Below, in pieces: positions 1 through 51,238 of a stretch of DNA of 64,000 nucleotides. Every line of letters starts with the position of its first letter. Position 1 is the first letter of the stretch. Where the stretch lies: positions 1 through 64,000 of the IMG/VR virus record IMGVR_UViG_3300048597_000118; one strand, given 5' to 3'. The notes under the pieces were generated by a model, which did not search any database, was not told the DNA's origin, and saw only the letters and a program-made list of their open reading frames with translations. The DNA comes from a virus. The translations under genes and the position numbers were made by a program.

Positions 1-3000
1 CTAATGGTCTAGAGGTAACAGCAACCTCAGCCCCCTTAATGTCTTTCGGCAATGTAGGGGACTTAAGATAGTTATCTTCTCTTTTGTTCTTAGCAGTGTC
101 ATTTGATATTGTTCTAGGTGAAAGCAACTCAGAGCTATCTAATGCTGATAAGGTAGAACCGCGCCTAAAGCCCGCAACATTATTCTTTGGCGTAGAAGAC
201 TCTGGAGTAACTATTTGTGTAGTGGTTGTTTTACTGGAAGTTGCTGTGTTAGTGGTCGCAAATGCTACTTTTTGTCCGCCTGAGTGTCTAGATAAAGCTT
301 CAACTCGACGTTGTTCTTTCTCTACCTTTTTCTTCTTATATTTCCCGCTAAAGTCAAATACTTCTACGGCATCACTGGCGCCATGCTTGTTCTGTTTAAC
401 CCAGTCTCTACCTACCTTTTCACCGTATATAGAGCCGGCTATAGAGCCGACTACAGACCCTACTTGAGAACCTATCTTAAAGCCGACGGCAGCACCAGCT
501 GCTATGCCAATACCACCAAAGAAAAACCCGATGGCAGCACCTGCGGCAGCACCTAATAAACCTCCTGCCACCCAGCCAACACCTTGTCCTACAACATTGC
601 CAGCTAAACCACCTAATGCTCCGCCTACATCTTCTTTAGCTTTCTGGTATTCTTCTGCAGTAGTAGCAGTGTTAAGCCTATAAGCACCGTATCCTAGGGA
701 GATAGCGTCAGCAGCATAGTTAAGATAAGGTAGTGCTTTAGTAGCTTTAAGCCCTCCCTTTAGAGTTAAGTAAGTTGTAGCGTAGCCAGCACCAGACTGA
801 GACAGATACTCAAAACCATAGGATTTCTGAAAGTCAGTAGTATCCTTCTTAGCTAAAGTAGTTACCCCTCTATAAAGGTTGAAAGTTGCCATACCGGCGC
901 TAAGACTACTACTGGCATACGTAGACCTCGTTTGCCAGTCAGCTTCTTTAACTTTATCTATAGTATTACCTACTAAGCCACGGCCGGAGCGCCCCATTAT
1001 AGTAACCGGGTCGGAGTATTGAGGGGCGCCGCCAATACTACCCCGATTTTTGTTGCTTGTTATATCATCAACATCAATAGAAGGAGCTACACTTTTAGGT
1101 AAGTCTTTTTGCAAAGTAATATCTGATGACTTAGTCAAAGTCACTTGCTTCTGTACATCAGATGGCAAGTCGGCAACGGTGTATAACGGTTCGCCCCACT
1201 TTTGGTAATCACTTAGATGTTTTTTATATTGTTGCAGCACTTCGTCTGATTGAGAGCCGCTCATATCCATAAGCCCCTGTAAATCAGAACCTACGGTTCT
1301 AGGTCCAAGACTTCCATCTTGGTTAGGTACAGAAGTAAAGTCACCACGTTTAACAGATTCTACAGTGACCTCATCGCTGAACATAGAGAACGCTTCACTT
1401 TGTTCTGCAAATCTGGAGTAACCAAAGTCTAATACCATGGTCTCACCGCCTGGTCTGACCATTACGTTCCTGCCGTGTACGTCCCCGTGTACTATACCCT
1501 GTGAGTGTAACGACGCCAGCTTTTTAGCCATAGATAGTCTGGCGGCGCGCCTAACTTCTACACCACTAATATCATCACTAATATCATCAAAAGTAACACC
1601 GTAGTGCTTGCCCATATCAAAGCTGCGCTCATCAATACCATAAACAGGAGGAGCTAAGTTCGTCTCGGCTGCTAACTTTTGTATATTGGCTTCTACTTGT
1701 ATTGTGTTGGCTATCTGTTTATTTACTCCAGACTCTAACAAGGTTTTTCTTATTAGAGTCCGGCCACCGACTTCAACTTCTGTCAAAGTGCCATTTCTAC
1801 CAGACATGGGTCCTGACACCTGGTTAGTAGGTATACTAGGTGCCTCACTACGAACAGTACCGCTTGAAGCTTGTGACTCTATAACTGAGGGAGGTGCTTG
1901 TGGATTAGTAACCGTAGCAGTGCCACCGCTGCCGCCGCCTCCAATAGGGCGACCGCCACCGCCGCCGGGTTTGGGACTACCACCACTCTTATTATCTCTA
2001 TCTATACTGGGCTGCTTTGGAGAAATAACGCCTTCTTCTCCAATTGACACGTCAGACGATACGCCAGGGCTAAGATTTTCTAATATGCCTTTAGCTCCTG
2101 AAAAATGGTCACGCAGACGCTTAAACATCTTATTAGCACCTACGTTTAATGCAACATGGGCCGCCGCCCATATATACCCAGAAGGCCCAACACCATAAAT
2201 CAAGTCGTCGACCATACCCTCGCGACCATATTCATCCCCTTCGCCCTTCAAAATATTCCGGGACCTATGCCGGGCAATATTAGTCTTGGCTATACTCTGA
2301 GTCCGCACACCAGTAGCCAAACTGGTGGCAGCACCTTGCACCATACCAACTGGTCCACCAGTAAATAAACCAAACGCGGTATTAATAGCCACGCTGGCTA
2401 TCAGCGCCCCCAAACCGACTGCCTTGTCAGGAGCACTAATACTAGTCAAATACTTCTTGGAAGCCCTGTTAGCTCGAGCCAAATTCCTACTGCTGAGGTC
2501 TAAGTCTTCTCTATTCTCTTTAATCCAGTTACGTTCAGACCTTACTTCCCACGTGTCAAATCCTTTAGATACAGTACTCTGAACGAGGTTATAGCCAACA
2601 GCACTCATAGCCAGCTTAAAGATACTGGAAGACCCAGGCAAGTAAGAAGCATACAAACCTTCACTTGCTTTACTATAAGCACGACGAGACATAGCCGTTG
2701 ATTGTAAATATTGGGCTACACTCATGCGCCCGGCCCCGTATCTATTAGACTGCTTCTCTATTTCTTTCTGTGCTCCTTGAGCTGAGAAATGATATTGCAC
2801 TAAGGGTAATAAATGCGTCCCTGCCTCGGCACCTACAGACAAAACAGATAATACTTTTTGGCCTGCGGTCATGGCGGCGGCATTACCCACCGCCCTACCT
2901 GGTATAGCAAAACTAGGCTTGACATGTTGTCGGAATGTTATTCCCTTACCTGCTTGATACTTGAAGTTAGTTAAAGCATATGTAGTAGCACCAGCAACAC

Positions 3001-6000
3001 CTTGTATACCACTGGCATAAGTTACATACTCTCCATATTTATTATTTAGCTCCCGGTCCTGAGCGGCGTGTGTCATTTCTTCCGTGATAAACCGGGAGTT
3101 CAGACTGCCCAAACTGATGCCAGCCCCAGCAGAATTCTTTCTTAGTTGATTACGAGCATTAAATGCAGCCGGGTTTTGCAATTGCCATTGCATTCTATTC
3201 TGCATAGTATCCTTCCAACTATCAGGAACATACGACCCGCTCTCTATCCACTTCTCCCTCTCTAACCACTGCTTGGCGGATATCCCGTCCTTATACTTTT
3301 CTATACCCTGACCTAGCGAATACTGGTAACCAAAGAAGCTAGTAGCCGCCGCAGCAGTAGCCCCAGATAAAAGCACATAGGCTCCTTTACTGAAGGCCTG
3401 ACCTACGCTGGTGGGAATCTTACCTTTAGTGACCGCCAAGGTACTCAAAGTGATAGCTGCCCCAGCTCCGATAAGCCCCCAACCTAAAGTATCTTCTGCA
3501 GCTTCTCTTTGGATTAAATTCTTAACATAGACGTCCTTGATTCCTGCCTCACGCACAGCTAAGGTGTGCCTTTTAGCAAAGTACCGGTCAGTGTGGTCCA
3601 TAGCAAAAGCGGATGCTGTAAGAGTACCTACTGCTAAGGTTCTTAAAGCAAGACTCTTGTTGCCAGCGCTAGGTGTTTTAGACATCAGCGCCAACACAGC
3701 ACCACTGAATAACGCCTGCTTACCTAAATCACTACTCTTTTGACCTGCTAAATAGTTAGGGTTAGTGCCACTATATTGTTGTCTATCCTGACGCCAGGTT
3801 TCTTGCCAGTTATAGGTCGTGATAGCTGACTGGGCTACAGGTAGGATATGCGGCGCTACTTTGTTAGATACGCTTGCCCATTTACTGGAACCAAACCAAC
3901 CAACTTTATAGTAAGACGCCGTAGCAATCCCACTAATTGCTAGAGCTCCTAGTCCGGCAACGGAGTCTTTATTAAGATAACTGTCCCGACCTTGACGTTG
4001 CTCTGTCAATAAACGCCCAGAGTATAGGTCTTTAGCAGCCCATTCTTCGGCATTGCGACCGACTATTTCATTAACCTGACTAGTGATTAAAAGGGTGCCG
4101 ACCAAGCCAACTTTATTTTCTCCTTGGCTGAATGCACTCAACACACTACTAGTAGCCGTCATAGCCGCCGCTTGGTAATAAGCACGATAAGACTCCTTAT
4201 AGTTGCCCATATGGTCTTTTGGGTCTACCTTTGCAAATCTATGATGGGCAGCGGTAATAGTAGCCACGTCCAGCACAAACGGAGCCAGTTTTGTAGCATG
4301 GCTGCCTATAGTTCCCCATTTACTAGACCCACCTTCTTTTAATGCCTGGTTAGCCAGTTCTCTTTCGTCAAAGGCTAATAGCTCAGCTCTGGTAGGACTA
4401 TTATTGTTTTGGCTATCTACCAGCTTATTAAGAGAGTCTACAGACCACCGGGCAAGATCGCCCCATTTACCTTTAGATTTATAAATGTTCGTCCAACTGA
4501 TACGTAAGAAGTCAGTTAACGAAAACCCTTTAAACCAATAAGGAGCTCCTAGGGTAACTGGAGTAAGTATATTTTTAATCGCAGTGCGAGCATTAAACTG
4601 TATGGCTTTCCAGCCTACTTCCTTAGTTTGGTCTTTTACAGACTTTTTCAGTATGTTCTTAGTGACTGCATTACTTAGCTGAGTCACTAAGTCTTTACCA
4701 CGAATCATGTTGTAGGCATAACCGCCGGCCATGGCAGCAGCAACGCTACTACTTGCAAACTCATAGGCTTGGGCTTTAGTCCTGCCTTCTGAATCATCTT
4801 CTAGATTTAGTCCGGCATAACCAATGTTAAAGATACCTTTGGGTATGAAGCCAGCTACATCACTGTTTAATAACACCTTACTTAACTTAAATACAGCCAA
4901 AGTAGTCACGCCAAAAGTTGCTAGTTTGGTGGTAAACCCGGTAGCTTTACCAGCCCAAGAACCGGCAACGTCAGGTTTCATACCTGCTCCGATGCGAGCT
5001 AATAACGATACACCAGCAGTAACACCTATAGCTGCAAGCCGACGGCGGTCTAAGAATTTACGGTCATCTTCGTCCTCCTGATCGCCTATCCACCCAATCA
5101 TGTCATCAAGTGCAGGACTTAATAATGCTGTAGCTCCAGCAATAGCTACGCCACTATAAGCAGTGTTAGCAGCTATCCTCGACCAAGACCTGGTTTTGGC
5201 CCATTGCGTTGCTAGAGCTAACCCCGCCTTTACTCTTTTATGGGCCCATATGCCAGCTCCTACAACGGAATTACTTATGAAGCCAAAGTTTATCTTGCGT
5301 ACTTGTCTTATAGACTTACTGATTAGATGGTCTTGATTCCCTATGTAGTTATAAGCAGCGCCGGCATAGGGTCTAGCTAAAGCACCAGTAACACCAGCCC
5401 CCACTTGTAACCCCAACACATGCCAACGTTTGTCTTTATCTTCAGACCAACCTAATTTATTGGCTAGAATAGACGCCCCTATAACAGCAGTGGCAGACCA
5501 TACAAACATTTGATTATTAGGGGCGGCACCGGCCCCACCTATTGGCTTAAACACCACTCCCTTAACTTTGTCTAATATTTCGCCAGCCTTGATAAACGAG
5601 TCGATAGTTATAGCAGCGCTCTTACCTGCTACATCCATAGGTGCTTGAATAAGACTACCAGTGCTAAACAAGCTGTATCGCATTACGTTAGTAGCTTGGG
5701 ATAACCAGGGTGCTGCCGATGGTCTAGTCTTAGGCACTAAAGGTCCTAACAGTGCATTACCGTAACTATCTATTTCCTGTTGACGACGTTTGACTGCTAA
5801 ATGAGTGAGAGGAGATACATAGCTGTATCCCATGTGCTCACTGGATACTCGACCAGCCCCTTTAGTTAGCCGTTCCATGGTCAAGGAACCTATTATCGTA
5901 GTAGTCGGTTTACCTTGAAGGAAACTGGACATCAGTTCAGTAGTGATGCCGGCGTTAAGTTGTCCACCACGACGACGCCGGGACTCGATTCTATTCTTAC

Positions 6001-9000
6001 GGTCTTGTTCTATTTCTGCCCGGGTATATAGCCACATCCTGGGTCCATACGCTGTTTGCTCTGGTGCCCGTTCTGACCAACGGTCGTAGAATGACTCTTT
6101 AGTCTCAGGGACAAACAGGTCAGCTAAGAAACTAACCCCCGGCATTTGTGCCGCCCTACGACGCATATTAGTAAACATAGGGTCTAACCCAGCAGTTATT
6201 ACCCTTAATGGAGATAACAATGCCTGCACTGGGGCCAGACTACCTATGGCATCTAATGAGCTAGCTGTAGCTCTAATAGATGGTCTTACTATATTTTTGT
6301 CTAGCCATTTAAACTTAGGCTTGAAGAACCCAGTCAAATTCTTACGAAACCCTTTATTAGCATAAGCAACACTGCCTACAGCTACTGCCGCCACCATAAC
6401 TGATACAGCCAGTGTGGGGTTTTTAGTTAGAGTGCCTAGTATTACTTGGGCCGGTATTATCATCCCAAAGGTTTGGAATAGACTGGCAGCGGCGGCATAG
6501 GATGACCGGCGGCGTTCTAATTCATCCATTGGGTCTGATGCTGCCGCTGCATAACTTATAAATTCGTACCCTGCTTTAGCATCAAACAAAGCAAAGGATG
6601 CTCGGAATAACCCACCCGTCGCCTGTTTAAATAACCCAGAGTATCCTTCTGTGTCTATAAGATTTCGAATACTCTCAGAATTAGCACTAATATCTGGAAT
6701 TTCTACAGAACGGTTCACTACAAGCGATTTATTTACAGGGGCTTTGTCTAAGGCTTTAAAAGAGCCAGTCTGACGTAAGACCTCCATTTTGTTCTGTAGA
6801 TGTCTTTGGAGTAGAGTTTCAATCTCCTGACGACGTATGTCATCACCTTTAGCATTGCGTAAGACGTTAGTCAATCCTTCTACTAAGGCGTCGTCTGTGA
6901 CATCGTAAATGCCTTTAATCATTTGTTCAAAGGCATCGCCTTTGCCTTTCATGCCGTAGCCAATTTCTAGTTGAGCCACGCTCTCTTTAAACTTTGACCT
7001 AATTTCATTAAGGATTTCAGTTATTTGTGGTGCTTGGTCTGAGCTTAAAGCAGCTAATCTACCAGAAAATGTGTCTAAAGACTTGCTGAAATTCTGTAAT
7101 GAGCCGACGGCGTTATGCTTACCAAATACTGCATTCAGTGCTGATATAGCTTCGTCACTGACCGGTCCACTCATAGACAATTCAGACATCACTGAACCCA
7201 CTTGTTTAATCAAGCGGTCTCCATCAGCAGTGAATGACGTACTTCGTAAAGCATGGGTCACATTCTCTCTGGCCTGCCCCAAACTCCGAGAAGAATCTAC
7301 TAATGTCCCATATACCTGTAATGCTCCTAATGCGCCTAGACCTTGAACAATAGAAGTTATACCGGTACCGGCTAACATACCAGTTAACCCTACTGCGCTA
7401 AACGCTAGGGCAGCTGCCGGTACAATGTTGTGATAATTGGCTCCATACTCATCTAAGGTACGGTCATAGAAGGTGCCAAAGGCGTAGTCCATAATACCGC
7501 CGAAGTACCCAGTAACAGGATTGGGTCCTTTATCTTGTACCCGTTCAGAGTCATACAACAAAGAATTTAGGTCTTGTTGGGTAGACCGACCTTTAGCCAT
7601 GGCGTACATTGCACGGGCAAATTCAGCATTAGTCTGCACACTAAATCTAATAGGATTACCCGAGATATTTGTTGACTCAATTCGGAAGTTATTACCTACA
7701 TAGTCATAAATTGTGGCGATGCTTGGCGATATAAAGTTTGTAGTTGCTTCTGTTTTAATACGACCTGCGCCGGCCATTACGGTCATTAGGTCTAACATAT
7801 GACCTTCACCACTCTGCCATGCTAGTCTTCTAATTTCATCGCTACGACGACCAATGGCCATCTGTAAGGTTGGGCTGGATATAGCAGCAGACTCACCGGC
7901 ACTTATGTTGTTCTTATACGTGGCGCGGGACTTTCTCATTAAAGTAGCTCTATATAAAGCCACTACCCTGGAAGCCGGCATGTTCGGGTCTTTCTGAGCT
8001 GCTGCTAATAAAGGTCCTATAGATTTAGCATTATTAAACTCAGATGCCATGGCAGGCATTAAGTAAAATGACCCACTAACGTCTGCCGCCACAGACTGAG
8101 ACTGCATATACGATTTAACCATGTCCTGTTGAGCAGATACCCCCAACGGACCACCTATACCTAAGAAGGGCGACGGCGCATCTTGATAGGTACCCATTGA
8201 CTTAGATGGGTTACCCATAAAGAATACAGACCGTAAAATATAATCTCCTACATTAGCTATGGCTTCGTTTACATTTTTAGGTTGGTATCTGGCACCACGG
8301 ATACCCAAGTTAGTGAGCATGGCTTTCTGCTCTCTAGTCATTTGAGCGCCACGGCCAGTGTCAGTCACCGCCCTTAATAGGTAACTGAGAGGATTAGAGT
8401 GGTCGTAAAAGTCCGTTAAGGATAAAAACTGGGCAGCAATAAAAGAGCCTAATAGAATAGGAGCTAATACCCTAGAAGCCATTCCTAACCTGGCGGCACC
8501 AGATTGTAATAAAGGTAGTTCAGTCCTACGGAACTGTCTGAGTAAGGGCTCTACAACTTCATCTGATTGACCTTCTTTAATGGCTAGCATTAACGCTTTT
8601 TTACTGTCGGCAGCGGCTTCTATAGTGATTCCGTTGTTACTGAGGTGTTGTTGATATGCCTTATATATCTCTTGCTTTTTACGTCCTATATACCCAGTGC
8701 CAGTTTCATTAGCCCAATCAGTCACAGATTCAAAGGCGCCGGATGCCATTAATGCGCCGCCGAAGCCTGCTGCTCCTATAGCAGTACCCAAAGCGTAATT
8801 AGCTAAATGATTTTGCTCTAATTTGATAGTGTTAGTAGTGTCTCCTTTAATAAGACTGCCTACCAAAGCATCCATGTGGTCACTTTGATGCTCAGTGGTT
8901 GTCTGTCCAGGACGTAACATGCCAGCTACTAACATAGCGCTTAGGTAGAAAGGCATTAACTTTCTAGCCATGGGGCCGGCTTTAAATAAAGCCTGCTCTC

Positions 9001-12000
9001 CTCTACCTAAGAAGGCAGTTATTGAGTGAGTAAGATAATTAACACCGACAAAACTTAGAGAGTAGGCCCCTCTGGTTAACTGGTCTGTTACAGTCAAGCC
9101 TGTGCTTGTCAGACTATAAAGCCCTTTATAGTTTTCTAACTCTCTGTATATAGGAGAATTCTTATCTAGACGACCGACAACTTTGCTTAATGATTGTTCA
9201 GCGCTTTGTAGAGCAGTCAATCCGCCTATGAACAACACAGGCCGGTAATCAAAGGTTGGGTTTAGCCCAGACCCTAAGGCTAAAGAAAGGATGCCAGAGG
9301 AAGCCTTAAGTGTGCTATAAGCTTCTTTACGCTGTTCTACGTCAGAGTTATCACCTATAAGACCTCTTTGATTCATACCAGGTTGGAGGTCAGTCAGTTG
9401 ATTGATTAAGAATCGTTCAGCTACAGACGGGGTATATTTAGTAGCTGGGTTAAACATAGAAGGCACCATAAAGCCGACCCCAGATAAGGGATAAAGCTGT
9501 AAACCAGACTGCATAGATATCTGGTTGGTGCTGGGGTCTAGTTTGCCAACCATAGCAAACTGATAAAATGGCGCAGCTATCTGTGTAGCAAACGGGTAAA
9601 ATAACCGCCCTGGTTGTTGGTCACTTACTGTATATGCAGAGGCTAATAACCCAGCGACCACCATGCTACTTCTAGATACATAGTCCATATCCTTAGTAGC
9701 TTTCTCTGCTGATTGTCTATGAGCTTTAGCAAAGATAGCGGCAGCAGAACCTTTAATAGGGTCTAGCTCTATGCCTTTACGGGGGTCATGCCACCGTTGC
9801 CTGAAGATAGTATCTCCTAGGGCTATCAAAGGCTCTAAAGTAGATGCGGCTACAGAAGTAATAGCTTGTGTAGCTAATAGGGCCAAAGAGGCTCCTACAA
9901 AAGCACCGGCATAGCCAAACCGTAACTTATTGGACCCCCAGAATGCGTTGGAGCCTGCTCCTTTAAGCAAACCAGTTAATTCTTCAGCGTTCTTAGTAGC
10001 AGATATACCTTCAACACCGTTTACAACACCAGATGCTACTTGAGTGATTAACTTGACTTGGTCTTCAGAGAATTGTGACCCGTATTTGGCAGAAGTCCAG
10101 TATCTTAGATGGCTAGACTGATGATAGACAGAAGGAAAGACTAAACCACCTAATACATAACCAGCAGTAGCCGCCGGGTATTTTAAGATTGCTGGAGCGC
10201 TATGACTGTAATTCTGGCTATAGCCAGCTAACACCTTAGCGTCTGCTTCCCTACCTTCTACTTCGGGAGACTTAGTGCCAAAGATATGGCTCATTATGCT
10301 GTCTCCTATGTCTAAACCTTGCGGTTTGACGAAGAAGTGGTCAATAATACGGTCTGCGATCAGGACCGCACCGGTGCTGAATAAGAATTTACGGAACCCA
10401 GCATAAGCATCATCTCCAGGAGGGCCAAGGTCACTATGCCCAGTGGCGTATTTTATACCTGGTGTGTCATTGATTTTTGTTTGAATATCAATATGTAGTT
10501 GTTTTAACTTAACTACGTCTTCTTCGCTAATGCCAGAGTCTGGGCTTGTTAACTTATTAATAAAGGCTTGTAATACATCATCGAACTTTACATTAGCTGC
10601 CCCTCCTTGAGCACTGCTCAACACGTTAAAGGTGTCCTTAAACGACTGGGCTACTTTCAGCTCAATAACAGACGCCTGGCTTTGTAATTTAAACGTCTCC
10701 AGGGTATCAGTTACATATTTACCTACACCTACTGAGGCAATATTCCCTATAGTCCGGGCCACTTCTCCTTGTAGGGAAAGTAGTCCAGTAAAACCAGGAC
10801 CGATTAACTGTTTAAAGTTTCGGCGGTTACCTATTATGTCATCTTGAGATTTACCTTGAACTACCTCATACCGGTTAAAAGCGTCTCTTATTGGTTTTAT
10901 CCACAATAAAGGATTAGCAGGTAGGTATTCAGCTAGGCTATCAAAGGTACGAGCTAAGTCTGTTAAACGGTCATAACCGTAGTGAAGTATTCTATTGACT
11001 TGGTCTTTTTGGGCGCTGGAATCAAAACGTAGCACAGGTTTAGCCCGGGCTAAGTCTATTAATTCTTCTCTTGCTTTTATATACCCAGCTTTTAATTTAT
11101 CTGTTGGTATGTCTACCGCGTTATCTAAAAACGGTAGGAACATGTTAGCCAAGTTAGCGCTGTCTAAGCGACGTACAGCCCCTAAATTCTTGAAGCCTAC
11201 AATATCAGGTATGTTGGGAGCTCCAGGATTAGGGTTGTCTAGAGAACGCGCTAGGTCTATGCTACCGCTAATTCTATGGGTGTCTTTATCTATAGCAAAG
11301 GTTATGCCTGTTTCTCTAAGTACTTCTCTAAAAGTAGCCTCAAACTTCTCTGGTGTTAGGTCGTCTGCTGACTTACTCTTAAGCTTCTTACGTACCAAGC
11401 TTATTAAATCATCTTTAAGATCTGTGTTGGTGTTAGACCTGTTATATATGTCTTCTAAGAACTTAAATAATTCTTCTTCTACCCCTGCTAATGCCTGTGC
11501 ATTTGCGCCTGTTCGGGCAGTATACCAATCAAAAAGACTGTTCTTGGCTCCTGTTACGTTCTTACCGGCTGCAAAATCCTGTACAGTCAGTAAATACTCT
11601 CCTAGAGCTAAACCTTCTTTTGCCGGCGTAAGGGCTGCACCAGTACTTCGCGCCAGACGGTCTAGTGTCCTTGCTTGCGAGAACATTCTTCTGTGACCAG
11701 TGTCTAACATCAAAACACCCGTGTAGTCACTTCCTTGTTCTGCTACTTTAGTTACTACGTCTACTACAAAACGAGACCCACTCTCTTCAATTTGAGACTT
11801 GGCTATAGAATAAGCGTGGGTCACACCAAAGTAACTAGCCATAGACAAAGACGTCTCAGCAATAGTCGTAGTTACGGTATTGAATAGATTTTCAAAGAAG
11901 CCCCGCTGCTGTTTGTCTCTAAAATACTCCTGCTCAATAATCTTCTGTTGGTACTCACCTATAGAGCCAGACAAATCTCCTTCGTGTTGTTTCTTAATGC

Positions 12001-13978
12001 GTTGCATCGTATAATGCCCGCTGACAGTGTCAAAAACACGACCAATACCAGACGCTAAGAACCCAGCTAAACCCTCTCCTGGAGTATAAAGGTCGTCTTG
12101 TCTAAACAGTTGGTTAAGGCTCATACCTAACCCGGGCGCACTTAATTTGGAATCAAGTCGCGAGAGTACATAACCCTGAATACCCTTAGCTTTAGTACCG
12201 TATAACGCCTGGTACCGGTCAGAGTAAATGCCTGTCGAGATGCCTTGGTGGTACTCATAAAAATCAGCGGGCATTTTATTAGGCATTACTGGCAACAGGC
12301 CTAACTCTTGGAAGTTGCCGCTTTGTATGTCTCTATAGGTAGGCTTATAAAAAGAAGATAGGTCGGCGCCACTTGGTCCTTGGTAAACGGCATCTTTGCG
12401 TAGTCTATATACGGCTCCTACATTTAGTACACGACCAATAGAACCCATAATGGCGTTAGTGTAAGCATCCGGTGCCGTGTCTAAGTCAACCATCATCCCT
12501 AACTCGTAAGCAAGGGACCCAATTACGCGGGCAGTGCCTATATTAAGAAAGCCGACTATACTGCCGTCGAAGTCTTGAGGGATTAGATTATCTTCTTTAA
12601 ACCTTTTAGCTAACTCAGACTCTTTGTTTAGATTAGGTATAACTAACCCAGACACGTTATGGTGCGCTGCTTGTTTACCAACCCATGTATGGGTCTGGAC
12701 TATATACGCATCTTCTAATAGACGCCGCTTTTCTCTAGGGTCTATATCCATACGGTCAATATCTGTATGGAGCACTGTCTTAACCCCTAGCTTTTTCAGG
12801 GTATTAATCTGGTCTAATGTTTGCTTGACTTGTTCTCGTCGTATGCCAGCCACTGTATTGTCAGCTAAGCTGGTCTCTGAATAACCCATAGCAGGGCCAC
12901 CCATGAAATACATGGCTCCTGAATTCTGCATCTCTTGCTGAATGGTGTCTAAATCTGCATGGAGTTCGTCTCGTATTTTGGCTAAGTCTTCATTGGTAAT
13001 AGAGTTAGAGTCACCTAGTCTTTCAGCAGTGGCAGACCTAGGCGCAGCCGCCCGAATAAACCTGTCAGTTTCGCTAATTGCTTCTTCGTGAACAGAAACG
13101 TTCCGTAATAACTTGACTCCTTCTAAATCCTTTTGGCCTGGCGCTGTATAATCTTCACTTTTAAAAACACCTCTGGTGGCGTATTTATCTTCAGCCCAGT
13201 CGTCCAGCATTCGATTATACCGAGGGTCTTCTATATGAAAAGAAGTGTCAGTATACCCTTGTCGGTATACCCCTCCCCAAAGGTTAGTAGTGCCGTCGTC
13301 ATGACGTTTAAAGGATACAGACCCACCTACTATGCCCGGCGCCATCCAGAATTGGAAGTTACCGTACATAGCTGTAGTTTGTACAGCCACTTTAGTAGGC
13401 TGCTCTACTAAGTTATTATCGCTGTCCCGTATATCAGCGTATTGAGCTGCACTTTCAGCACTAATTTCCCCAATGCTAAGTTTGAAGTGCATTAACTTCT
13501 GTTGTATTTCTTCAGGTAAGTTAGGGTCTATACCTGCGCTTGATACTTGTGGAGCTGGCATCCCTGACCTAGGGTCGTGTCGCTGAGTAAAATAACTATT
13601 TAACTTTTGAATATTCAGGGTTTCTGCTGGTGCGTCAAAAAGATTCTTACCTTGCTTAAAGGAGAACTCACTTTGAGTAGCTCTTTTAATGCCAGCATCA
13701 CCTAGAACCTGAGCCTCATTTTTACCGAAGAGTTTATTGAACCACCCTTGAGGCGGAGCTGTAATCAAAAAGTTATCTGTTTCTACAGTGCCTCGCCTAA
13801 ACCTAGATAATGACCTTTCTAGGTTAAATACAGTGTGAGTCTCACTGTAGACTACATAGGGATTATCTCCAGACTCAGGACTAGTCTGACCAGTCCTAGC
13901 TGAACTAAACCGGTCAGGCACATTAAAGCGGAGCTGGTGGTCATTGCTGACACTGCTAAACCCAAAAGTCCCGGCCAT
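1..13978 (-). CDS. Giant (>4,659 aa, 3' end outside window) virion/tape-measure-like multidomain protein with kinase-like domain
   Basis: ATG at 13978 follows an in-frame TAA and reads MAGTFGFSSV. The frame stays open to the window edge (...VAVTSRPL). The ORF track has no minus-strand ORF below 13852, as expected if there is no stop. Contains many Ala/Gly-rich hydrophobic helices, a HGDVHGRN...DFG motif and a glycine zipper. Confidence 0.9.
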   Translation of the reverse strand, partial: MAGTFGFSSVSNDHQLRFNVPDRFSSARTGQTSPESGDNPYVVYSETHTVFNLERSLSRFRRGTVETDNFLITAPPQGWFNKLFGKNEAQVLGDAGIKRATQSEFSFKQGKNLFDAPAETLNIQKLNSYFTQRHDPRSGMPAPQVSSAGIDPNLPEEIQQKLMHFKLSIGEISAESAAQYADIRDSDNNLVEQPTKVAVQTTAMYGNFQFWMAPGIVGGSVSFKRHDDGTTNLWGGVYRQGYTDTSFHIEDPRYNRMLDDWAEDKYATRGVFKSEDYTAPGQKDLEGVKLLRNVSVHEEAISETDRFIRAAAPRSATAERLGDSNSITNEDLAKIRDELHADLDTIQQEMQNSGAMYFMGGPAMGYSETSLADNTVAGIRREQVKQTLDQINTLKKLGVKTVLHTDIDRMDIDPREKRRLLEDAYIVQTHTWVGKQAAHHNVSGLVIPNLNKESELAKRFKEDNLIPQDFDGSIVGFLNIGTARVIGSLAYELGMMVDLDTAPDAYTNAIMGSIGRVLNVGAVYRLRKDAVYQGPSGADLSSFYKPTYRDIQSGNFQELGLLPVMPNKMPADFYEYHQGISTGIYSDRYQALYGTKAKGIQGYVLSRLDSKLSAPGLGMSLNQLFRQDDLYTPGEGLAGFLASGIGRVFDTVSGHYTMQRIKKQHEGDLSGSIGEYQQKIIEQEYFRDKQQRGFFENLFNTVTTTIAETSLSMASYFGVTHAYSIAKSQIEESGSRFVVDVVTKVAEQGSDYTGVLMLDTGHRRMFSQARTLDRLARSTGAALTPAKEGLALGEYLLTVQDFAAGKNVTGAKNSLFDWYTARTGANAQALAGVEEELFKFLEDIYNRSNTNTDLKDDLISLVRKKLKSKSADDLTPEKFEATFREVLRETGITFAIDKDTHRISGSIDLARSLDNPNPGAPNIPDIVGFKNLGAVRRLDSANLANMFLPFLDNAVDIPTDKLKAGYIKAREELIDLARAKPVLRFDSSAQKDQVNRILHYGYDRLTDLARTFDSLAEYLPANPLLWIKPIRDAFNRYEVVQGKSQDDIIGNRRNFKQLIGPGFTGLLSLQGEVARTIGNIASVGVGKYVTDTLETFKLQSQASVIELKVAQSFKDTFNVLSSAQGGAANVKFDDVLQAFINKLTSPDSGISEEDVVKLKQLHIDIQTKINDTPGIKYATGHSDLGPPGDDAYAGFRKFLFSTGAVLIADRIIDHFFVKPQGLDIGDSIMSHIFGTKSPEVEGREADAKVLAGYSQNYSHSAPAILKYPAATAGYVLGGLVFPSVYHQSSHLRYWTSAKYGSQFSEDQVKLITQVASGVVNGVEGISATKNAEELTGLLKGAGSNAFWGSNKLRFGYAGAFVGASLALLATQAITSVAASTLEPLIALGDTIFRQRWHDPRKGIELDPIKGSAAAIFAKAHRQSAEKATKDMDYVSRSSMVVAGLLASAYTVSDQQPGRLFYPFATQIAAPFYQFAMVGKLDPSTNQISMQSGLQLYPLSGVGFMVPSMFNPATKYTPSVAERFLINQLTDLQPGMNQRGLIGDNSDVEQRKEAYSTLKASSGILSLALGSGLNPTFDYRPVLFIGGLTALQSAEQSLSKVVGRLDKNSPIYRELENYKGLYSLTSTGLTVTDQLTRGAYSLSFVGVNYLTHSITAFLGRGEQALFKAGPMARKLMPFYLSAMLVAGMLRPGQTTTEHQSDHMDALVGSLIKGDTTNTIKLEQNHLANYALGTAIGAAGFGGALMASGAFESVTDWANETGTGYIGRKKQEIYKAYQQHLSNNGITIEAAADSKKALMLAIKEGQSDEVVEPLLRQFRRTELPLLQSGAARLGMASRVLAPILLGSFIAAQFLSLTDFYDHSNPLSYLLRAVTDTGRGAQMTREQKAMLTNLGIRGARYQPKNVNEAIANVGDYILRSVFFMGNPSKSMGTYQDAPSPFLGIGGPLGVSAQQDMVKSYMQSQSVAADVSGSFYLMPAMASEFNNAKSIGPLLAAAQKDPNMPASRVVALYRATLMRKSRATYKNNISAGESAAISSPTLQMAIGRRSDEIRRLAWQSGEGHMLDLMTVMAGAGRIKTEATTNFISPSIATIYDYVGNNFRIESTNISGNPIRFSVQTNAEFARAMYAMAKGRSTQQDLNSLLYDSERVQDKGPNPVTGYFGGIMDYAFGTFYDRTLDEYGANYHNIVPAAALAFSAVGLTGMLAGTGITSIVQGLGALGALQVYGTLVDSSRSLGQARENVTHALRSTSFTADGDRLIKQVGSVMSELSMSGPVSDEAISALNAVFGKHNAVGSLQNFSKSLDTFSGRLAALSSDQAPQITEILNEIRSKFKESVAQLEIGYGMKGKGDAFEQMIKGIYDVTDDALVEGLTNVLRNAKGDDIRRQEIETLLQRHLQNKMEVLRQTGSFKALDKAPVNKSLVVNRSVEIPDISANSESIRNLIDTEGYSGLFKQATGGLFRASFALFDAKAGYEFISYAAAASDPMDELERRRSSYAAAASLFQTFGMIIPAQVILGTLTKNPTLAVSVMVAAVAVGSVAYANKGFRKNLTGFFKPKFKWLDKNIVRPSIRATASSLDAIGSLAPVQALLSPLRVITAGLDPMFTNMRRRAAQMPGVSFLADLFVPETKESFYDRWSERAPEQTAYGPRMWLYTRAEIEQDRKNRIESRRRRGGQLNAGITTELMSSFLQGKPTTTIIGSLTMERLTKGAGRVSSEHMGYSYVSPLTHLAVKRRQQEIDSYGNALLGPLVPKTRPSAAPWLSQATNVMRYSLFSTGSLIQAPMDVAGKSAAITIDSFIKAGEILDKVKGVVFKPIGGAGAAPNNQMFVWSATAVIGASILANKLGWSEDKDKRWHVLGLQVGAGVTGALARPYAGAAYNYIGNQDHLISKSIRQVRKINFGFISNSVVGAGIWAHKRVKAGLALATQWAKTRSWSRIAANTAYSGVAIAGATALLSPALDDMIGWIGDQEDEDDRKFLDRRRLAAIGVTAGVSLLARIGAGMKPDVAGSWAGKATGFTTKLATFGVTTLAVFKLSKVLLNSDVAGFIPKGIFNIGYAGLNLEDDSEGRTKAQAYEFASSSVAAAMAGGYAYNMIRGKDLVTQLSNAVTKNILKKSVKDQTKEVGWKAIQFNARTAIKNILTPVTLGAPYWFKGFSLTDFLRISWTNIYKSKGKWGDLARWSVDSLNKLVDSQNNNSPTRAELLAFDERELANQALKEGGSSKWGTIGSHATKLAPFVLDVATITAAHHRFAKVDPKDHMGNYKESYRAYYQAAAMTATSSVLSAFSQGENKVGLVGTLLITSQVNEIVGRNAEEWAAKDLYSGRLLTEQRQGRDSYLNKDSVAGLGALAISGIATASYYKVGWFGSSKWASVSNKVAPHILPVAQSAITTYNWQETWRQDRQQYSGTNPNYLAGQKSSDLGKQALFSGAVLALMSKTPSAGNKSLALRTLAVGTLTASAFAMDHTDRYFAKRHTLAVREAGIKDVYVKNLIQREAAEDTLGWGLIGAGAAITLSTLAVTKGKIPTSVGQAFSKGAYVLLSGATAAAATSFFGYQYSLGQGIEKYKDGISAKQWLEREKWIESGSYVPDSWKDTMQNRMQWQLQNPAAFNARNQLRKNSAGAGISLGSLNSRFITEEMTHAAQDRELNNKYGEYVTYASGIQGVAGATTYALTNFKYQAGKGITFRQHVKPSFAIPGRAVGNAAAMTAGQKVLSVLSVGAEAGTHLLPLVQYHFSAQGAQKEIEKQSNRYGAGRMSVAQYLQSTAMSRRAYSKASEGLYASYLPGSSSIFKLAMSAVGYNLVQSTVSKGFDTWEVRSERNWIKENREDLDLSSRNLARANRASKKYLTSISAPDKAVGLGALIASVAINTAFGLFTGGPVGMVQGAATSLATGVRTQSIAKTNIARHRSRNILKGEGDEYGREGMVDDLIYGVGPSGYIWAAAHVALNVGANKMFKRLRDHFSGAKGILENLSPGVSSDVSIGEEGVISPKQPSIDRDNKSGGSPKPGGGGGRPIGGGGSGGTATVTNPQAPPSVIESQASSGTVRSEAPSIPTNQVSGPMSGRNGTLTEVEVGGRTLIRKTLLESGVNKQIANTIQVEANIQKLAAETNLAPPVYGIDERSFDMGKHYGVTFDDISDDISGVEVRRAARLSMAKKLASLHSQGIVHGDVHGRNVMVRPGGETMVLDFGYSRFAEQSEAFSMFSDEVTVESVKRGDFTSVPNQDGSLGPRTVGSDLQGLMDMSGSQSDEVLQQYKKHLSDYQKWGEPLYTVADLPSDVQKQVTLTKSSDITLQKDLPKSVAPSIDVDDITSNKNRGSIGGAPQYSDPVTIMGRSGRGLVGNTIDKVKEADWQTRSTYASSSLSAGMATFNLYRGVTTLAKKDTTDFQKSYGFEYLSQSGAGYATTYLTLKGGLKATKALPYLNYAADAISLGYGAYRLNTATTAEEYQKAKEDVGGALGGLAGNVVGQGVGWVAGGLLGAAAGAAIGFFFGGIGIAAGAAVGFKIGSQVGSVVGSIAGSIYGEKVGRDWVKQNKHGASDAVEVFDFSGKYKKKKVEKEQRRVEALSRHSGGQKVAFATTNTATSSKTTTTQIVTPESSTPKNNVAGFRRGSTLSALDSSELLSPRTISNDTAKNKREDNYLKSPTLPKDIKGAEVAVTSRPL

Positions 13979-14017: not shown

Positions 14018-14638
14018 CTAAGCGCGACGCCTAGATAAGTCCTTGATCGAATCAAACCTTAATTCGTCATCATCTACTATATCTGCTAAAGTCAATGCTG
14101 GTTGAAATACAACCCTGACATATTCTCCGGGCACTGGGGTTTGTCCAGGCCAACTCAACACATTATAGTTAGCACTCCATAAGTGGTCTTGATTACCTTT
14201 TACTGACCTAACTAACCAAACGTTAGTGGGTAATTCATAAGGATTAGCCCCAGTATAAACAAAGTCATGGCTCGATTCCATACCATCAAACTCAGGAACC
14301 AGCCACCGCTGGGTCAATAACGGCGCTCGGGCACCCTTACGATGATAATCAACAATGTAATGACCATTAGGTAAGTCAGCACAACTGGAGGCCAACTGTA
14401 ACCTAATAAAACCGTCGGGCGGCACTTCCAAAACAAATGGCTCTGGGATTATGTTTTGTACGCCTCTATGGACCACCGCAGGTGGGTGGACTTTGAGGTA
14501 GTACTGACTCGGAGATTGGACTTGGGAACCGTCTGGGGCTAACGCCGGTGGCCTGAAGTGAATGACTATAGGTGTATATTTTAGTTGACCGGCATTGAGC
14601 GACCGGGCATATATATCCATTTGGTTAAAGTTAGGCAT
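14018..14638 (-). CDS. Hypothetical protein (206 aa), possibly virion-associated
   Basis: Co-oriented ORF filling the gap between terL and the giant gene; AT-rich start context. Confidence 0.7.
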   Translation of the reverse strand: MPNFNQMDIYARSLNAGQLKYTPIVIHFRPPALAPDGSQVQSPSQYYLKVHPPAVVHRGVQNIIPEPFVLEVPPDGFIRLQLASSCADLPNGHYIVDYHRKGARAPLLTQRWLVPEFDGMESSHDFVYTGANPYELPTNVWLVRSVKGNQDHLWSANYNVLSWPGQTPVPGEYVRVVFQPALTLADIVDDDELRFDSIKDLSRRRA

Positions 14639-14665: not shown

Positions 14666-17600
14666 TTAGAAACCAAAGCCGCCGTCATCAAAGTCATCGG
14701 TGAAGCTTTGCCCCTTAGTTCTAGCTTGTCTTACTAATGAACGTCGCTGGGAATCAGAGCCCCAGTCGCGCACTTTATTCCTCATAACCGACGGTCTACC
14801 TACCATCTTAGGCAGTGCTTTAGTAGTCATAGGAACCCCAGCTATTTCCCAGGCTACTGAACATACTGAGTCAATTAGGTCTTTAGAGTTATGTACTATA
14901 ACCCCAGCAGCCAACGCAAAGTTATCCCACTCATCTACTTCTAAGTCATATACGTCTACAGGTTCTAGAAGAGTGACTTTTATAATTTCGCGAACCTTAT
15001 GGTTTTCGCCCAGCCCACCCTTGACAAAATCATTCCAAGTCTCATAACCATTTCTCTTAAGAATGATTCTTAGAGTGGATACAGAACACTGCAGCTCTGC
15101 GGCAACATCCTTCATCATAGAGAGCCCAGACTGTACTGCGCCGTGTATATCTTGGATACTTACCTTAGGCGACCTGGTTCTATCAGAATCAACCATAATA
15201 ACTTTTCCTTTAAAGGAAAAAGTGCCTGCTTTAGTGTCTTTTCTGTCTATGTATTTATTTTCAAACTCCTGCCAATCAGAAAAGCCCTCGTCTCTTAAGA
15301 CTCGAGTGATAGTATTTCTGGACTCATCTAAAAAGATAGCAGCTTGGTATGCATTAGACGCACCATGCTCTAACGAACGTAGTAGAGAGTCTAAAGTAAC
15401 ATTTGCTCTGAAGAAACTAGCTTTCCTGTTCCTCTCCACATAGAACTCTTTAGGCTGGCTCTTCATATACGCTGACCTTTTTGCTCTCGTCTCAGGACGC
15501 TTATTAAATTCGATAGTCCCTTCAGAGAGCTTTTTACGGAACTCTAAGTCATTATTATGTGCGAGAGTGGAGTGATATGAGCAGTGTTCACTATGGTCTA
15601 ACACCTCTAGGTTTTCGGGTCTGTTGTCTGTTTTAATATGGTTAATATGATGGACAATTTTACCTCCTTTTAAATCTGGGTAGTTTAAGGACATATGGTG
15701 AGTTAAGTATCTGCCTTGTATAGAAGATACCTTTTCATATCCTCCCTGAACTGGCCATTGAAAGTTTATAGGCATCAACCGTGTAAACCCAGGCACTATA
15801 TCCTCAGCTTTTATATAATCTCCATTTCGTAACATAAATGGGTGCTCAGGGGTACATCTGATTACAGCTCCACTATCTAGAACTACATCAAGTAACTCAG
15901 TCACTTGTTTAGTCTTTCTGCCTCGCGCTTTGCCAGGCACAATTGTACCATCAGGTTTGGCCGAATACACCCATACCTCTTTGCCCTCTAGCTCAGAAAT
16001 CATAGGTCTAGTTCCGTCCAATAAAGGTATTCGAGTTTCCCCTACAAAACAACCATCTGGTGGGTGCATAATCTTACCGCGTTCTGTGTCATGGATGATG
16101 CCCATCATTTCTGACTTCAATAACGCTGTCCAATAGGAGTCTTTAGGTAATATCAGCCGACCTTCGTGGACTAATTTCCTTGTAAAGTCATATATTTCTA
16201 CTTGGACTCTATTACTCCAGAAACGGCTACTAGCGTTAATGCCAAGCAACCTTAACCGTTGAATAGTTTCATGTTGTTGAGCGTGGTCAGTAGTCAACTT
16301 ATATATAGGTCTAGAGGCGTGAATGGTGGTGATGATGTCATAGACATTAAGGATACTAACTACAGAACCTCCTTCTGGTTCCCAAGCGGCTAATCCATCA
16401 ATAACTACTACGTCTTGGTCATCGCGTCGCTCACCGTGACCAAATGCCATAGCATAGGCATCTTTGACGAATGCCGGGTCTAAGTGCATGTAAGTGTGAT
16501 GGCTATAATTCTTTTCTAGACTGTGTAGTTGTAACCTGACCATTTTGTCAGGCATTAACTGCATAGGCTCTAACTTGATTACTGACCGTCCTGTAGTTGC
16601 TTCTAACACCTCAGTTTCACTGAAGTAGGTAAAGGCTGAAGTGGTGCGGTCCCCTTCAAATTCAAGACGGGCTGAGGCAGGGTTGAGGGTGTACTCAGAG
16701 GCGACGATAGGATTGTTGCGGTTCATTAAAGGATTCAAATCCCAAGTGCGGAATCTGAAGCCAATCCAAGAGTCTTCTGCCATAGCAGCAGTGTATAACC
16801 TCTGTATGGCATCTCCATCACGCCAGGCACTACTAATAGCCACGCGGCGGGCATGTTCTCCAAAAGTAATACCAGATACACCGATGTTAGACCAGAGTTC
16901 TAGTGCGTTAGATTTACCGTCTTTATTTTCAAAACGGGCGACTTCATCCATGACTAAAAGTATTACCCTAGACCCTACTTGACTAGAGCCTTTAGAGTTA
17001 CCTGCGTATATGTAGAGTAGTTTGTCGTGATATTTAATCTCTTCTTCACCGATAATTATGCTTTTGTTATCTATAAGACGTTTTACTTTAGGGATATAGT
17101 TAAGGAATGCCCGCGCTTGACCAAAGATAGTCTTTTTTACCTGACTGGCTGCTGGAGCCAAGCAATATATACTAATAAGAGTTGAGCTGGCTACACCGAA
17201 GAATTGTTGGGGATTCGGCAGCATACATAGCTTATACCACTCATAACCTATAATGATTGCCCCTAGGAAGGTATTGTGATTGGTCATACCCTGAGCTACG
17301 TACTGCTGATGTCCTGGAACCCAAAGGTCCACACAGAATGCGGTCGACTCCTCTACAGAAACTACAGGAGTATAAAAATAATCACAGTCTAGTAAGTGTT
17401 GAAAGTGCTTTACAGCTTCTTGGTCAGAACTATACTGCTCTACCAGAGGCAAAAATCTCTCAACTCGCTTAGAGCTTAGCTTTTCCCCAGTAGATTTTTT
17501 GATGGCATTGCCAACTATAGCCCTATATTCAGAGCGGACATTAGGTGGGTCTCCTGGTTTTTTATCAAAATACTGCCCAGTATTGTCTGGTAGAGAACCC

Positions 17601-19902: not shown

Positions 19903-20385
19903 TTAAGGTTGTCCTCTGATTACCGAGACAAAATCAACAGGCAGATTAAATTCTTGCGCTTGATTAGCCCATTCATTACGGTGTTCTGTCGTAACTTCTA
20001 AAGCTTGACAAAAATAATTCCAATAAGCACCAAAACCACTACCGCTAACACCAACATCAGCAACTTTTCCGTACCGTTCCACAATGCCAGGAACTAGAAA
20101 TGGGTTGGCACTAGAAACGCCCAGTCCATACGCAACAAATGAAGGATGGGTTAATAGATAAAAATTAAAATTTTCCCACTGTGGCGGTGGTATTTCCTCT
20201 ACTGGTTCAGGGTCAGGTACTATCTCCAACTCAGTGCCGCTATCAAGAAACTGTTGCCAACTGTTTTGCAGAACTGACAGTGTTGGTTCCGTAAAACCAG
20301 AAAAATCAGGTTCACCATTTACCCATGGAATGGGAGTAGTAGCACCGGGGGACACGAGGAATAAAGTAGTTGAATTTCTAATCAT
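19903..20385 (-). CDS. Putative tail fibre assembly/chaperone protein
   Basis: 160-aa ORF overlapping the stop of the fibre gene; call rests on position. Confidence 0.5.
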   Translation of the reverse strand: MIRNSTTLFLVSPGATTPIPWVNGEPDFSGFTEPTLSVLQNSWQQFLDSGTELEIVPDPEPVEEIPPPQWENFNFYLLTHPSFVAYGLGVSSANPFLVPGIVERYGKVADVGVSGSGFGAYWNYFCQALEVTTEHRNEWANQAQEFNLPVDFVSVIRGQP

Positions 20386-50608: not shown

Positions 50609-51238
50609 ATGGAAAGTAACAATCCTACGTACCTATTAGCCACTTTAGACCAACTACGCTCATATCTAACAATTACAGAGTCCTCTTTCAGTGAAGGAGC
50701 TTTCAACTGCTCTCTAATAACCCGCAACACTAAAGTAGCACCTCTTAAATTTCAAGCCCTTGAATTAGCGAAGAAATTAACCTATGAGTGGGACCAACTA
50801 AAGACTAGAGTCAACGTATATCAAACATTAACCGACTTACCGGAGTCAAAAGACTTGGCTAGTGCCGCCTGCTTTTATTACTGCCACAGTCTTATCCTTG
50901 ACTCTGTGGGTTGGGCTAATTTTGTCTCAGGAAAGCTACGGTACCGCATATATGGTACCCCTTATATGCGAGAAGAATCAGAATTGTTAGACCGTAAAAC
51001 CGTAGTAGGTGCAGCAGCAATATTATACGGGCTGTCCATAAATGAATATATAGGCTCCCACTACACAGTCAAAACACCAGAGGGGAAAGAACACTTCCTT
51101 CGTGGGGCAGAAAATCATTGCTCTTGTAGTAGATACTCAATAGGACCCAATGGATTCTGCGAGCATTCTGCTTTAGGTAAAGTCTATTGTGATAATAGAG
51201 CTTTGCTGGTTAATACTGGTTTAGCCTCCTTCTTTTAG
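50609..51238 (+). CDS. SWIM zinc-finger protein
   Basis: YTVK...HCSC-x10-CEH; a 209-aa ORF that fills the gap between minus-strand genes. Confidence 0.8.
   Translation: MESNNPTYLLATLDQLRSYLTITESSFSEGAFNCSLITRNTKVAPLKFQALELAKKLTYEWDQLKTRVNVYQTLTDLPESKDLASAACFYYCHSLILDSVGWANFVSGKLRYRIYGTPYMREESELLDRKTVVGAAAILYGLSINEYIGSHYTVKTPEGKEHFLRGAENHCSCSRYSIGPNGFCEHSALGKVYCDNRALLVNTGLASFF

Follow-up and report, generated by a model that had tools for sequence, protein, structure and literature searches.

Kinases that enter the host on injected phage proteins were predicted in 2017, when Iyer, Burroughs, Anand, de Souza and Aravind described a monophyletic family of kinase domains within polyvalent proteins from (pro)phages in the Verrucomicrobia-Chlamydia group and in Bacteroidetes, predicted that the proteins are packaged and enter with the DNA, and proposed that these domains modify host proteins after injection in the manner of the T7 kinase; the idea of injected phage kinases is thus not new (Iyer et al., 2017; PMC5512222). 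[quoted passage not shown] The T7 enzyme, gp0.7, is a Ser/Thr protein kinase that phosphorylates host proteins at the very start of infection (cited in PMC5512222). In Thermus phage P23-45, gp96 is a tape measure of 5,002 amino acids (aa) joined to a virion RNA polymerase, an enzyme that works at the cytoplasmic side while the DNA enters (PMC10770324). Here we describe a minimal protein-kinase-like (PKL) domain lodged in the variable C-terminal third of a giant, cysteine-free phage protein that may itself be packaged in the virion and ejected. The gene lies at one end of IMG/VR virus record IMGVR_UViG_3300048597_000118, and the stretch analysed, referred to here as the window, is the first 64 kb (64,000 nucleotides) of this linear 101,169-b contig, which is estimated to be 68% complete.

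Three near-complete IMG/VR contigs of 190-217 kb (G001, G002 and G003) encode relatives of the giant protein. The G001 orthologue is 6,114 aa long, so that about 1,100 C-terminal residues, including an expected VanY domain, are missing from the window copy, and the whole window protein would measure about 5,800 aa. The C-terminus is missing because the reading frame runs off the end of the contig. The features of the gene on which our argument relies, from the N-terminus of the protein onward, are as follows.

2-13978, minus strand: giant open reading frame (ORF) of 4,659 stop-free codons, with its ATG at 13978, running off the contig start
2048-13978, minus strand: conserved N-terminal scaffold, residues 1-3977, 65% identical to G001, with parts recognisable in G002 and G003
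2363-2419, minus strand: hydrophobic segment VGLGALIASVAINTAFGLF, residues 3854-3872, the last before the kinase (from the translation)
1808-1990, minus strand: Gly/Pro/Ser-rich low-complexity linker GGSPKPGGGGGRPIGGGGSGG, residues ~3997-4057, before the kinase
1199-1807, minus strand: minimal protein-kinase-like domain, residues 4058-4260, predicted from profiles and an AlphaFold2 model
1784-1804, minus strand: degenerate Gly-rich loop SGRNGTL (from the translation and alignment A1, described below)
1745-1747, minus strand: beta3 lysine K4078 (LIRKT)
1691-1693, minus strand: alphaC glutamate E4096 (QVEANIQ)
1466-1489, minus strand: catalytic loop HGDVHGRN, with H4164, D4166 and N4171 invariant in A1
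1421-1429, minus strand: DFG with the Mg-binding Asp D4184, its D and G invariant in A1
1004-1198, minus strand: Ser/Thr/Pro-rich linker that follows the kinase; its G001 counterpart is longer and differs from it
2-1015, minus strand: conserved post-kinase region, residues 4322-4659, 60-67% identical to G001
422-625, minus strand: glycine-zipper hydrophobic cluster GGLLGAAAGAAIGFFFGGIGIAAGAAVG, residues ~4452-4519, between the kinase and the hydrolase end

The original prediction, made from the letters of the window and its translations, had placed an intact kinase-like domain inside a protein of more than 4,600 aa. On the minus-strand translation of positions 2-2500 all of its motifs were seen where it had put them and in canonical order, with an LAPPVYG motif between QVEANIQ and HGDVHGRN, and the domain sits within the single open frame of 4,659 codons. 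As read from this translation, the domain has the complete residue set for phosphotransfer, namely K4078, E4096, H4164-G-D4166, N4171 and D4184-F-G. An exhaustive HMMER search of 1.84 billion representative proteins gave 984 matches at E<=1e-3 and one below 1e-30 (P0002); the latter was considered as a third orthologue and rejected, being the G001 protein with a later start. Among the weaker matches are stand-alone mini-kinases of 160-226 aa (P0038, P0108, P0109, P0128 and P0134), which align across the whole domain at 23-28% identity and have GLAPxV, DM, LHxxGIxHxDLHxxN and IDYG in common with it. In an alignment of the domain with its relatives (A1, 10 sequences), P71, G88, H119, H125, D127, N132, D145, G147 and R188 (A1 numbering) are invariant, and K39 and E57, the beta3 lysine and alphaC glutamate, are kept in at least 90% of the sequences. 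The DFG position reads DYG in G001 and in the mini-kinases, and the His two residues after the catalytic Asp (D+2) is nearly invariant across the mini-kinase group.

The Gly-loop sequence is SGRNGT in the window, with RGRNA at this place in G001 and GEGxxG among the mini-kinases. Evolution of the domain is fast: it is 46% identical to its G001 counterpart, compared with 95% for the capsid protein. A degenerate loop and rapid divergence are what one might see in a catalytically dead domain, a pseudokinase retained for structure or binding. However, K, E, HGD..N and D[Y]G are retained in G001, and no catalytic residue is lost in either copy or among the mini-kinases. Bud32 and RIO proteins have equally degenerate Gly-loops and are active enzymes. 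Because the catalytic residues are conserved, we regard a dead domain as highly improbable.

Profile searches place the domain among kinases without assigning it to one family. With the isolated domain as query, Pfam returned Pkinase (PF00069) at 29.9 bits (E 5e-7), below its cut-off of 31.7; APH (PF01636) at 26.8 bits (E 6e-6), above its cut-off of 23.2; PK_Tyr_Ser-Thr at 23.1 bits; ABC1 at 22.4 bits (cut-off 22.9); and Kdo at 17.8 bits. All of these kinase-type alignments are centred on the catalytic loop and DFG. RIO1 scores 15.8 against a cut-off of 22. Among NCBIfam models those for Bud32 rank first (E 8e-8), with TIGR03724 at 32.1 bits, far under its equivalog cut-off of 125 bits, and the top phmmer match in the PDB is the plant Bud32 8k20_B (E 4e-4). 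Within the phages, tblastn of the kinase gave only weak matches, to kinases of cyanophage S-CBWM1, and its nearest language-model clusters are small Uroviricota kinases. The domain falls into no specific kinase family.

APH is the only Pfam model to score above its gathering threshold, the Kdo/WaaP type also matches, and APH-like and ChoK-like kinases of Synechococcus phage S-CBWM1 are among the closest viral models. One could thus imagine an APH/ChoK/Kdo-WaaP-type kinase for small molecules, lipids or envelope precursors, which modifies a membrane or wall component, or an inhibitory small molecule, at the site of entry, the more so as the neighbouring domains of the carrier act on the cell envelope. 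The APH alignment, however, covers only ~40 residues around the catalytic loop, structural comparison (below) ranks Bud32, RIO and PknB over any APH or ChoK chain, and ATP is not available outside the cytoplasmic membrane; an enzyme of this kind seems very unlikely to us.

The fold was modelled with AlphaFold2. From the single sequence the model was unusable (predicted local distance difference test, pLDDT, 35); with alignment A1 it reached a pLDDT of 83.8 and a predicted template modelling score of 0.80, and it shows a two-lobed kinase fold with a beta-rich N-lobe containing alphaC and a helical C-lobe. The C-lobe is cut down to the size seen in Bud32, with helices 98-120, 154-171 and 190-220 of the model retained, and no recognisable activation segment or substrate-binding lobe is present. 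Foldseek matched the model to kinases with probability 1.00. In VIA-align the top structure was human PRPK (Z 15.1, root-mean-square deviation (rmsd) 3.3 Å over 172 residues), followed by yeast and archaeal Bud32 and RIO1 (Z 14.4), Rio2 (Z 13.8), PknB (Z 13.5) and COQ8A (Z 13.0, 200 residues aligned). The PRPK, Bud32 and RIO alignments (Z 15.1-13.8) have rmsd values of 2.7-3.6 Å over 160-173 residues, and the matches to Bud32, RIO and PknB at Z 13-15 span model residues 15-221. The best viral structural models are kinases of cyanophages S-TIM5 and S-CBWM1. The claim of an intact PKL domain is thus borne out, by the K, E, HGD..N and DFG residues kept in the orthologue and by the modelled fold; on this model, the PKL fold is established and is of a Bud32/RIO-like grade, with a minimal C-lobe and no activation segment. 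The domain resembles Bud32/PRPK and RIO1/RIO2 in its size, its degenerate Gly-loop, its HGD..N loop, its lack of an activation segment and in these proteins being its nearest solved folds. Unlike them, it scores far below the family cut-offs and is embedded in a phage protein of structural type.

The same comparisons raise the possibility of an ATPase switch. Bud32, RIO and UbiB relatives act chiefly as ATPases, and a domain working like these or like UbiB/COQ8 could use ATP hydrolysis to power or control a conformational change in the ejected protein, for instance when the membrane channel opens or closes, when the protein leaves the membrane or when it is coupled to the entry of DNA. Bud32/PRPK and RIO give the best matches in structure and in profile searches, COQ8A is matched along 200 residues, ABC1 falls just short of its Pfam cut-off, the domain lies between hydrophobic segments, and the model lacks the activation segment and substrate-binding lobe named above. 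The loop HGDVHGRN, moreover, has His at D+2 and not the Lys of Ser/Thr kinases, and in this it resembles ABC1-type loops such as FHADVHAGN of P0079. On the other hand, Bud32 and RIO work in defined complexes (KEOPS and pre-40S ribosomal particles) to which no counterpart was seen here, neither Kae1/Cgi121 partners nor a ribosome context, with Kae1 not having been searched for in the contig, and annotation labels the small stand-alone phage kinases of the group as Ser/Thr kinases. The same residues serve phosphotransfer and hydrolysis, so that the sequence cannot separate the two. We consider such a switch unlikely.

Like the polyvalent kinases of Iyer et al., the domain is a reduced member of the Ser/Thr/Tyr-kinase superfamily with an intact active site, set in a very large multi-domain phage protein. 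The polyvalent class is marked by several effector or enzyme domains on a single phage polypeptide that is packaged and injected. In the carrier family the orthologue combines the kinase with VanY, and four to five wall hydrolases occur in the relatives further removed; a classical polyvalent anchor such as MuF was not found in domain scans of the giant protein. Membership in the 2017 family itself was considered and rejected. In the window and in G001 H-G-D is contiguous, without an insert; the corresponding N-lobe strand (SFDMGKHYG in the window, SFVMRKVTG in G001) has no Gln; the C-lobe loss applies only in part, since the domain keeps a Bud32-sized C-lobe in the model; and the carrier is tape-measure-like, with wall hydrolases, in a cyanophage-like myovirus. 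The defining features of the family being absent or partial, the domain would therefore represent an independent recruitment.

A probable source of the module, judging from the alignments, is the stand-alone phage mini-kinases. These proteins of 160-250 aa (the five named above and an Atlas cluster of 325 viral members) align with the window kinase over the whole domain, and differ from it in that each has a small gene of its own, where the window kinase is embedded, and in often having a strongly basic N-terminus. Four of the metagenomic examples (P0038, P0108, P0109 and P0128) are themselves free of cysteine, and the three with complete N-termini (P0038, P0109 and P0128) start with a very basic Arg/Lys-rich stretch; on their composition, the Cys-free mini-kinases might also be packaged in virions. 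A 244-aa stand-alone relative occurs in two jumbo-size viral contigs, for example at 7722-8456 of locus L054 (IMGVR_UViG_3300029267_002788, 284 kb).

Identity between the giant proteins of the window and G001 is 65% over residues 1-3977, falls to 40-46% in the kinase region and returns to 60-67% over residues 4322-4659. In G002 (6,952 aa) and G003 (4,155 aa) the resemblance is limited to parts of the N-terminal ~3,600 residues. A word-indexed search of 5.8 billion proteins gave three long homologues, P0002 (the G001 protein), P0156 (the G002 protein) and P0157 (6,860 aa). The kinase profile matches only the window and G001 copies and is absent from G002, G003 and P0157, which have the scaffold. 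Word-indexed protein searches with the kinase region itself, in the giant and near length classes, gave no match, pattern scans for the kinase found G001 alone among viral contigs, and they found no match among metagenome contigs and genome contigs. Since the profile is restricted to these two copies, the kinase is, as far as sequence comparison goes, a module specific to this lineage and placed in the part of the giant protein that varies, its C-terminal third. This agrees with the description of the domain in the original prediction as an inserted module preceded by a Gly/Pro linker: flexible linkers were found on both sides, and the domain is missing from the more distant orthologues. Between the scaffold and the kinase, G001 has an extra coiled-coil-like stretch (residues ~4090-4200; locus L027) without a counterpart in the window, and ~215 extra residues in all; the cargo region of the giant protein changes by insertions and deletions at the linkers.

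The carrier itself has the look of a protein that crosses the bacterial envelope. Its family has Ala/Gly-rich hydrophobic segments every 350-500 residues, and in the full-length orthologue a long conserved scaffold bearing such segments is followed by the kinase, the glycine-zipper cluster, which from its sequence is a candidate membrane-inserting segment, and VanY. Residues 4312-4583 match phrog_1047, ‘tail associated lysin’ (E 8.5e-9). The VanY peptidase of G001 (116 bits) lies ~1,000 residues past the kinase, the C-terminal end of the G002 protein has SLT (weak), M23, VanY, beta-lactamase2 (beta-lactamase-like) and DPBB_1 domains, with P0156 and P0157 carrying the same families, and all four full-length relatives end in cell-wall hydrolase domains. 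A long protein with hydrophobic segments and C-terminal peptidoglycan hydrolases is a feature of tape measures that this family has. My-WqHQDG, a cultured phage that is distantly related, encodes beta-lactamase-family, amidase, LD-endopeptidase and M23 domains in separate adjoining genes inside the tail module (locus L057, 25351-30992), whereas in the group of the window beta-lactamase-like, M23 and wall-peptidase domains are fused to the C-terminus of the giant protein. Neither sequence nor profile searches with the whole giant protein and the scaffold found a match in the PDB, the scaffold has no Pfam match, and tblastn of the scaffold (2,201 aa) against phages gave no match.

The composition of the carrier is striking in the same respect. 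The window protein has no Cys in 4,659 residues and its orthologues have 0-2 in 4,155-6,952 residues, compared with 0.3-2% Cys in other proteins of the same phages. Among reference proteins that pass through phage tails (loci L058-L060), the N4 virion RNA polymerase has 0 Cys in 3,500 residues, T7 gp15 has 0 in 747, T7 gp16 has 0 in 1,318 and the P23-45 tape measure gp96 has 0 in 5,002; T7 RNA polymerase, T7 DNA polymerase, N4 DNA polymerase and T7 gp0.7, in contrast to these ejected proteins, contain 1.4-2.2%. The absence of Cys may thus be a cheap sequence marker for proteins travelling through phage tails.

Several systems offer partial parallels. Like P23-45 gp96, the window protein is a giant Cys-free protein with a presumptive cytoplasmic enzyme N-terminal to a wall peptidase (M23 at 3159-3249 in gp96). 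Unlike it, gp96 has an RNA polymerase, belongs to a siphovirus with an 800-nm tail and is encoded in the tape-measure position, and no sequence similarity between the two was found. It nevertheless sets an experimental precedent for delivering an enzyme on a giant protein that is ejected. T7 gp16 (a lytic transglycosylase) and the N4 virion RNA polymerase gp50 are likewise large and Cys-free, join envelope crossing to an enzyme and pass through the tail into the host, but they are head-internal proteins of podoviruses, with no homology to the window protein and without a kinase. T7 gp0.7 is a functional model for an injected kinase; it is, however, made as an early gene product once the DNA has entered and is no part of the virion, its 359 aa include 8 Cys, and no specific sequence relation to the window kinase was seen.

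The original prediction went on to propose a kinase packaged in the virion and injected with the DNA, acting in host takeover or counter-defence before transcription starts. Kinase activity, delivery into the cytoplasm and such an early role are conjecture. That the carrier is an ejected virion protein keeps its place as a plausible reading, short of an established one, given the late-operon position, the C-terminal hydrolases, the hydrophobic segments and the lack of Cys, as in proven ejected proteins. An alternative is a kinase working late, in the producing cell. In that case it might phosphorylate itself, host factors or other proteins of the virion, with control of assembly as one conceivable purpose. 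Ejection of the giant protein might then not take place, or the protein might be no part of the virion at all and could instead be a membrane-anchored protein for lysis or envelope remodelling. The gene belongs to a late operon, so that its product would be in the ATP-rich cytoplasm before assembly; it lies outside the tail module; the flanking Ser/Thr-rich linkers could be substrates in cis; and wall hydrolases could also serve lysis. Yet the near-absence of Cys over 4,155-6,952 residues in all orthologues fits ejected proteins and not cytoplasmic phage enzymes, and endolysins are small, hydrolases on very large proteins with hydrophobic segments being typical of virion-associated lysins and tape measures (phrog_1047, P23-45 gp96). 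We therefore hold action in the producing cell to be decidedly unlikely.

Based on this analysis we can outline how an ejected kinase might act. The giant protein would form part of the virion, either as a tape-measure-like protein or as an internal ejection protein, and would be extruded through the tail at infection. Its C-terminal hydrolases would open the peptidoglycan and its hydrophobic segments would enter the cytoplasmic membrane, leaving the linker-tethered kinase on the cytoplasmic side, where we place it because this is the only place with ATP. There, ahead of all phage gene expression, the kinase could phosphorylate a protein of the host, itself or Ser/Thr-rich linkers in the ejected proteins; host proteins would be the default substrate, as with T7 gp0.7, and the linkers possible substrates in cis. 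Taken as a whole, from a giant protein in the virion through its extrusion to a kinase that reaches the cytoplasm and phosphorylates before phage genes are expressed, we see this chain as about evenly balanced between right and wrong.

A number of observations weigh against it. The giant gene follows the fibre genes, the large terminase subunit (TerL) gene and a 206-aa ORF, and is not in the tape-measure position between the tube/chaperone and baseplate hub genes; the hydrolase end lies outside the window, as the contig stops before it; and cysteine depletion as a sign of ejection is a correlation only. The cytoplasmic location of the kinase is a guess, since it depends on how often the protein crosses the membrane between kinase and hydrolase. 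As for the activity, the Gly-loop is degenerate, as in Bud32 and RIO, the alignment behind the fold model took in recognised kinases, and with Bud32 and RIO mainly ATPases and APH above its cut-off, a protein substrate is not implied. Finally, the searched collections hold two kinase-bearing copies only, and the phage is uncultured.

A still more specific proposal is offered tentatively, and we think it rather doubtful in its entirety: that here, for the first time, a tape-measure-like ejection protein with wall hydrolases would be carrying a protein kinase in a contractile-tailed phage, the enzyme being stationed, once inserted at the membrane, at the cytoplasmic mouth of the DNA channel and phosphorylating host defence or regulatory proteins before phage transcription, as a pre-made counter-defence enzyme recruited independently of the 2017 polyvalent-protein kinase family. 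If delivered with the DNA, the kinase would act in the first seconds of infection, when many bacterial defences decide the outcome and before anti-defence genes that depend on transcription can work. If true, a protein kinase would join the short list of activities (RNA polymerases, ADP-ribosyltransferases and wall hydrolases) shown or predicted on ejected giant proteins, and the C-terminal third of a conserved scaffold would be a place where such cargo is exchanged, in the manner of toxin cassettes.

The gene context was read from PHROG and Pfam scans of the window, in which the giant gene forms the downstream end of a co-oriented late structural string. We place it at the end of this string because TerL lies on the same strand just upstream. 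The remaining members of the string, in order, are listed here.

51221-52708, same strand as the giant gene: portal
between portal and capsid, same strand as the giant gene: prohead protease
47347-48642, same strand as the giant gene: major capsid protein
39133-42732, minus strand: tail sheath
after the sheath, same strand as the giant gene: VgrG-like protein of 748 aa
27098-28192, same strand as the giant gene: baseplate wedge
20382-23195, same strand as the giant gene: fibre
14666-19066, minus strand: large terminase subunit carrying two intein-like inserts, with 27 nt between it and the 206-aa ORF downstream
14018-14638, minus strand: 206-aa ORF of unknown family directly upstream of the giant gene, an arrangement conserved in G001 (209 aa)

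As the string includes sheath and baseplate genes, the phage is assigned from its gene content to the myoviruses, with a contractile tail, and is an uncultured virus of ~200 kb. Its major capsid protein is 95%, 74% and 59% identical to the counterparts in G001, G002 and G003, and 30% identical to the capsid proteins of Microcystis phage Ma-LMM01 and Microcoleus phage My-WqHQDG; by this measure the window phage is distantly related to Microcystis and Microcoleus cyanophages. Blastn of window positions 1-8000 against cultured phages gave no match, no tRNA genes were found in the window, and a scan for promoters and terminators gave counts at or below those expected from shuffled sequence.

Two proteins of the string are unusually long. 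The tail sheath protein has 1,199 aa, with the match to the sheath family limited to its last ~460 residues. TerL has 1,466 aa, compared with 592 aa in G001; its first intein-like insert interrupts the Walker A motif (GR..K|C ... HN|TFLG), and the second, at PPDG|C ... |SKDLID, includes a match to an HNH endonuclease.

The kinase-bearing protein is not the only giant encoded here. Self-comparison revealed neither internal repeats nor paralogy with a second giant, and each phage of the group encodes two unrelated Cys-free giants, here of 4,659+ aa and 5,173 aa with 0 Cys each. A third giant of 3,452 aa has 45 Cys and a C-terminal RecD/AAA_30 helicase. The coordinates of these other giants are 55364-64000 in the window (an ORF that goes on to contig position 70885) and 85621-95976 in the contig.

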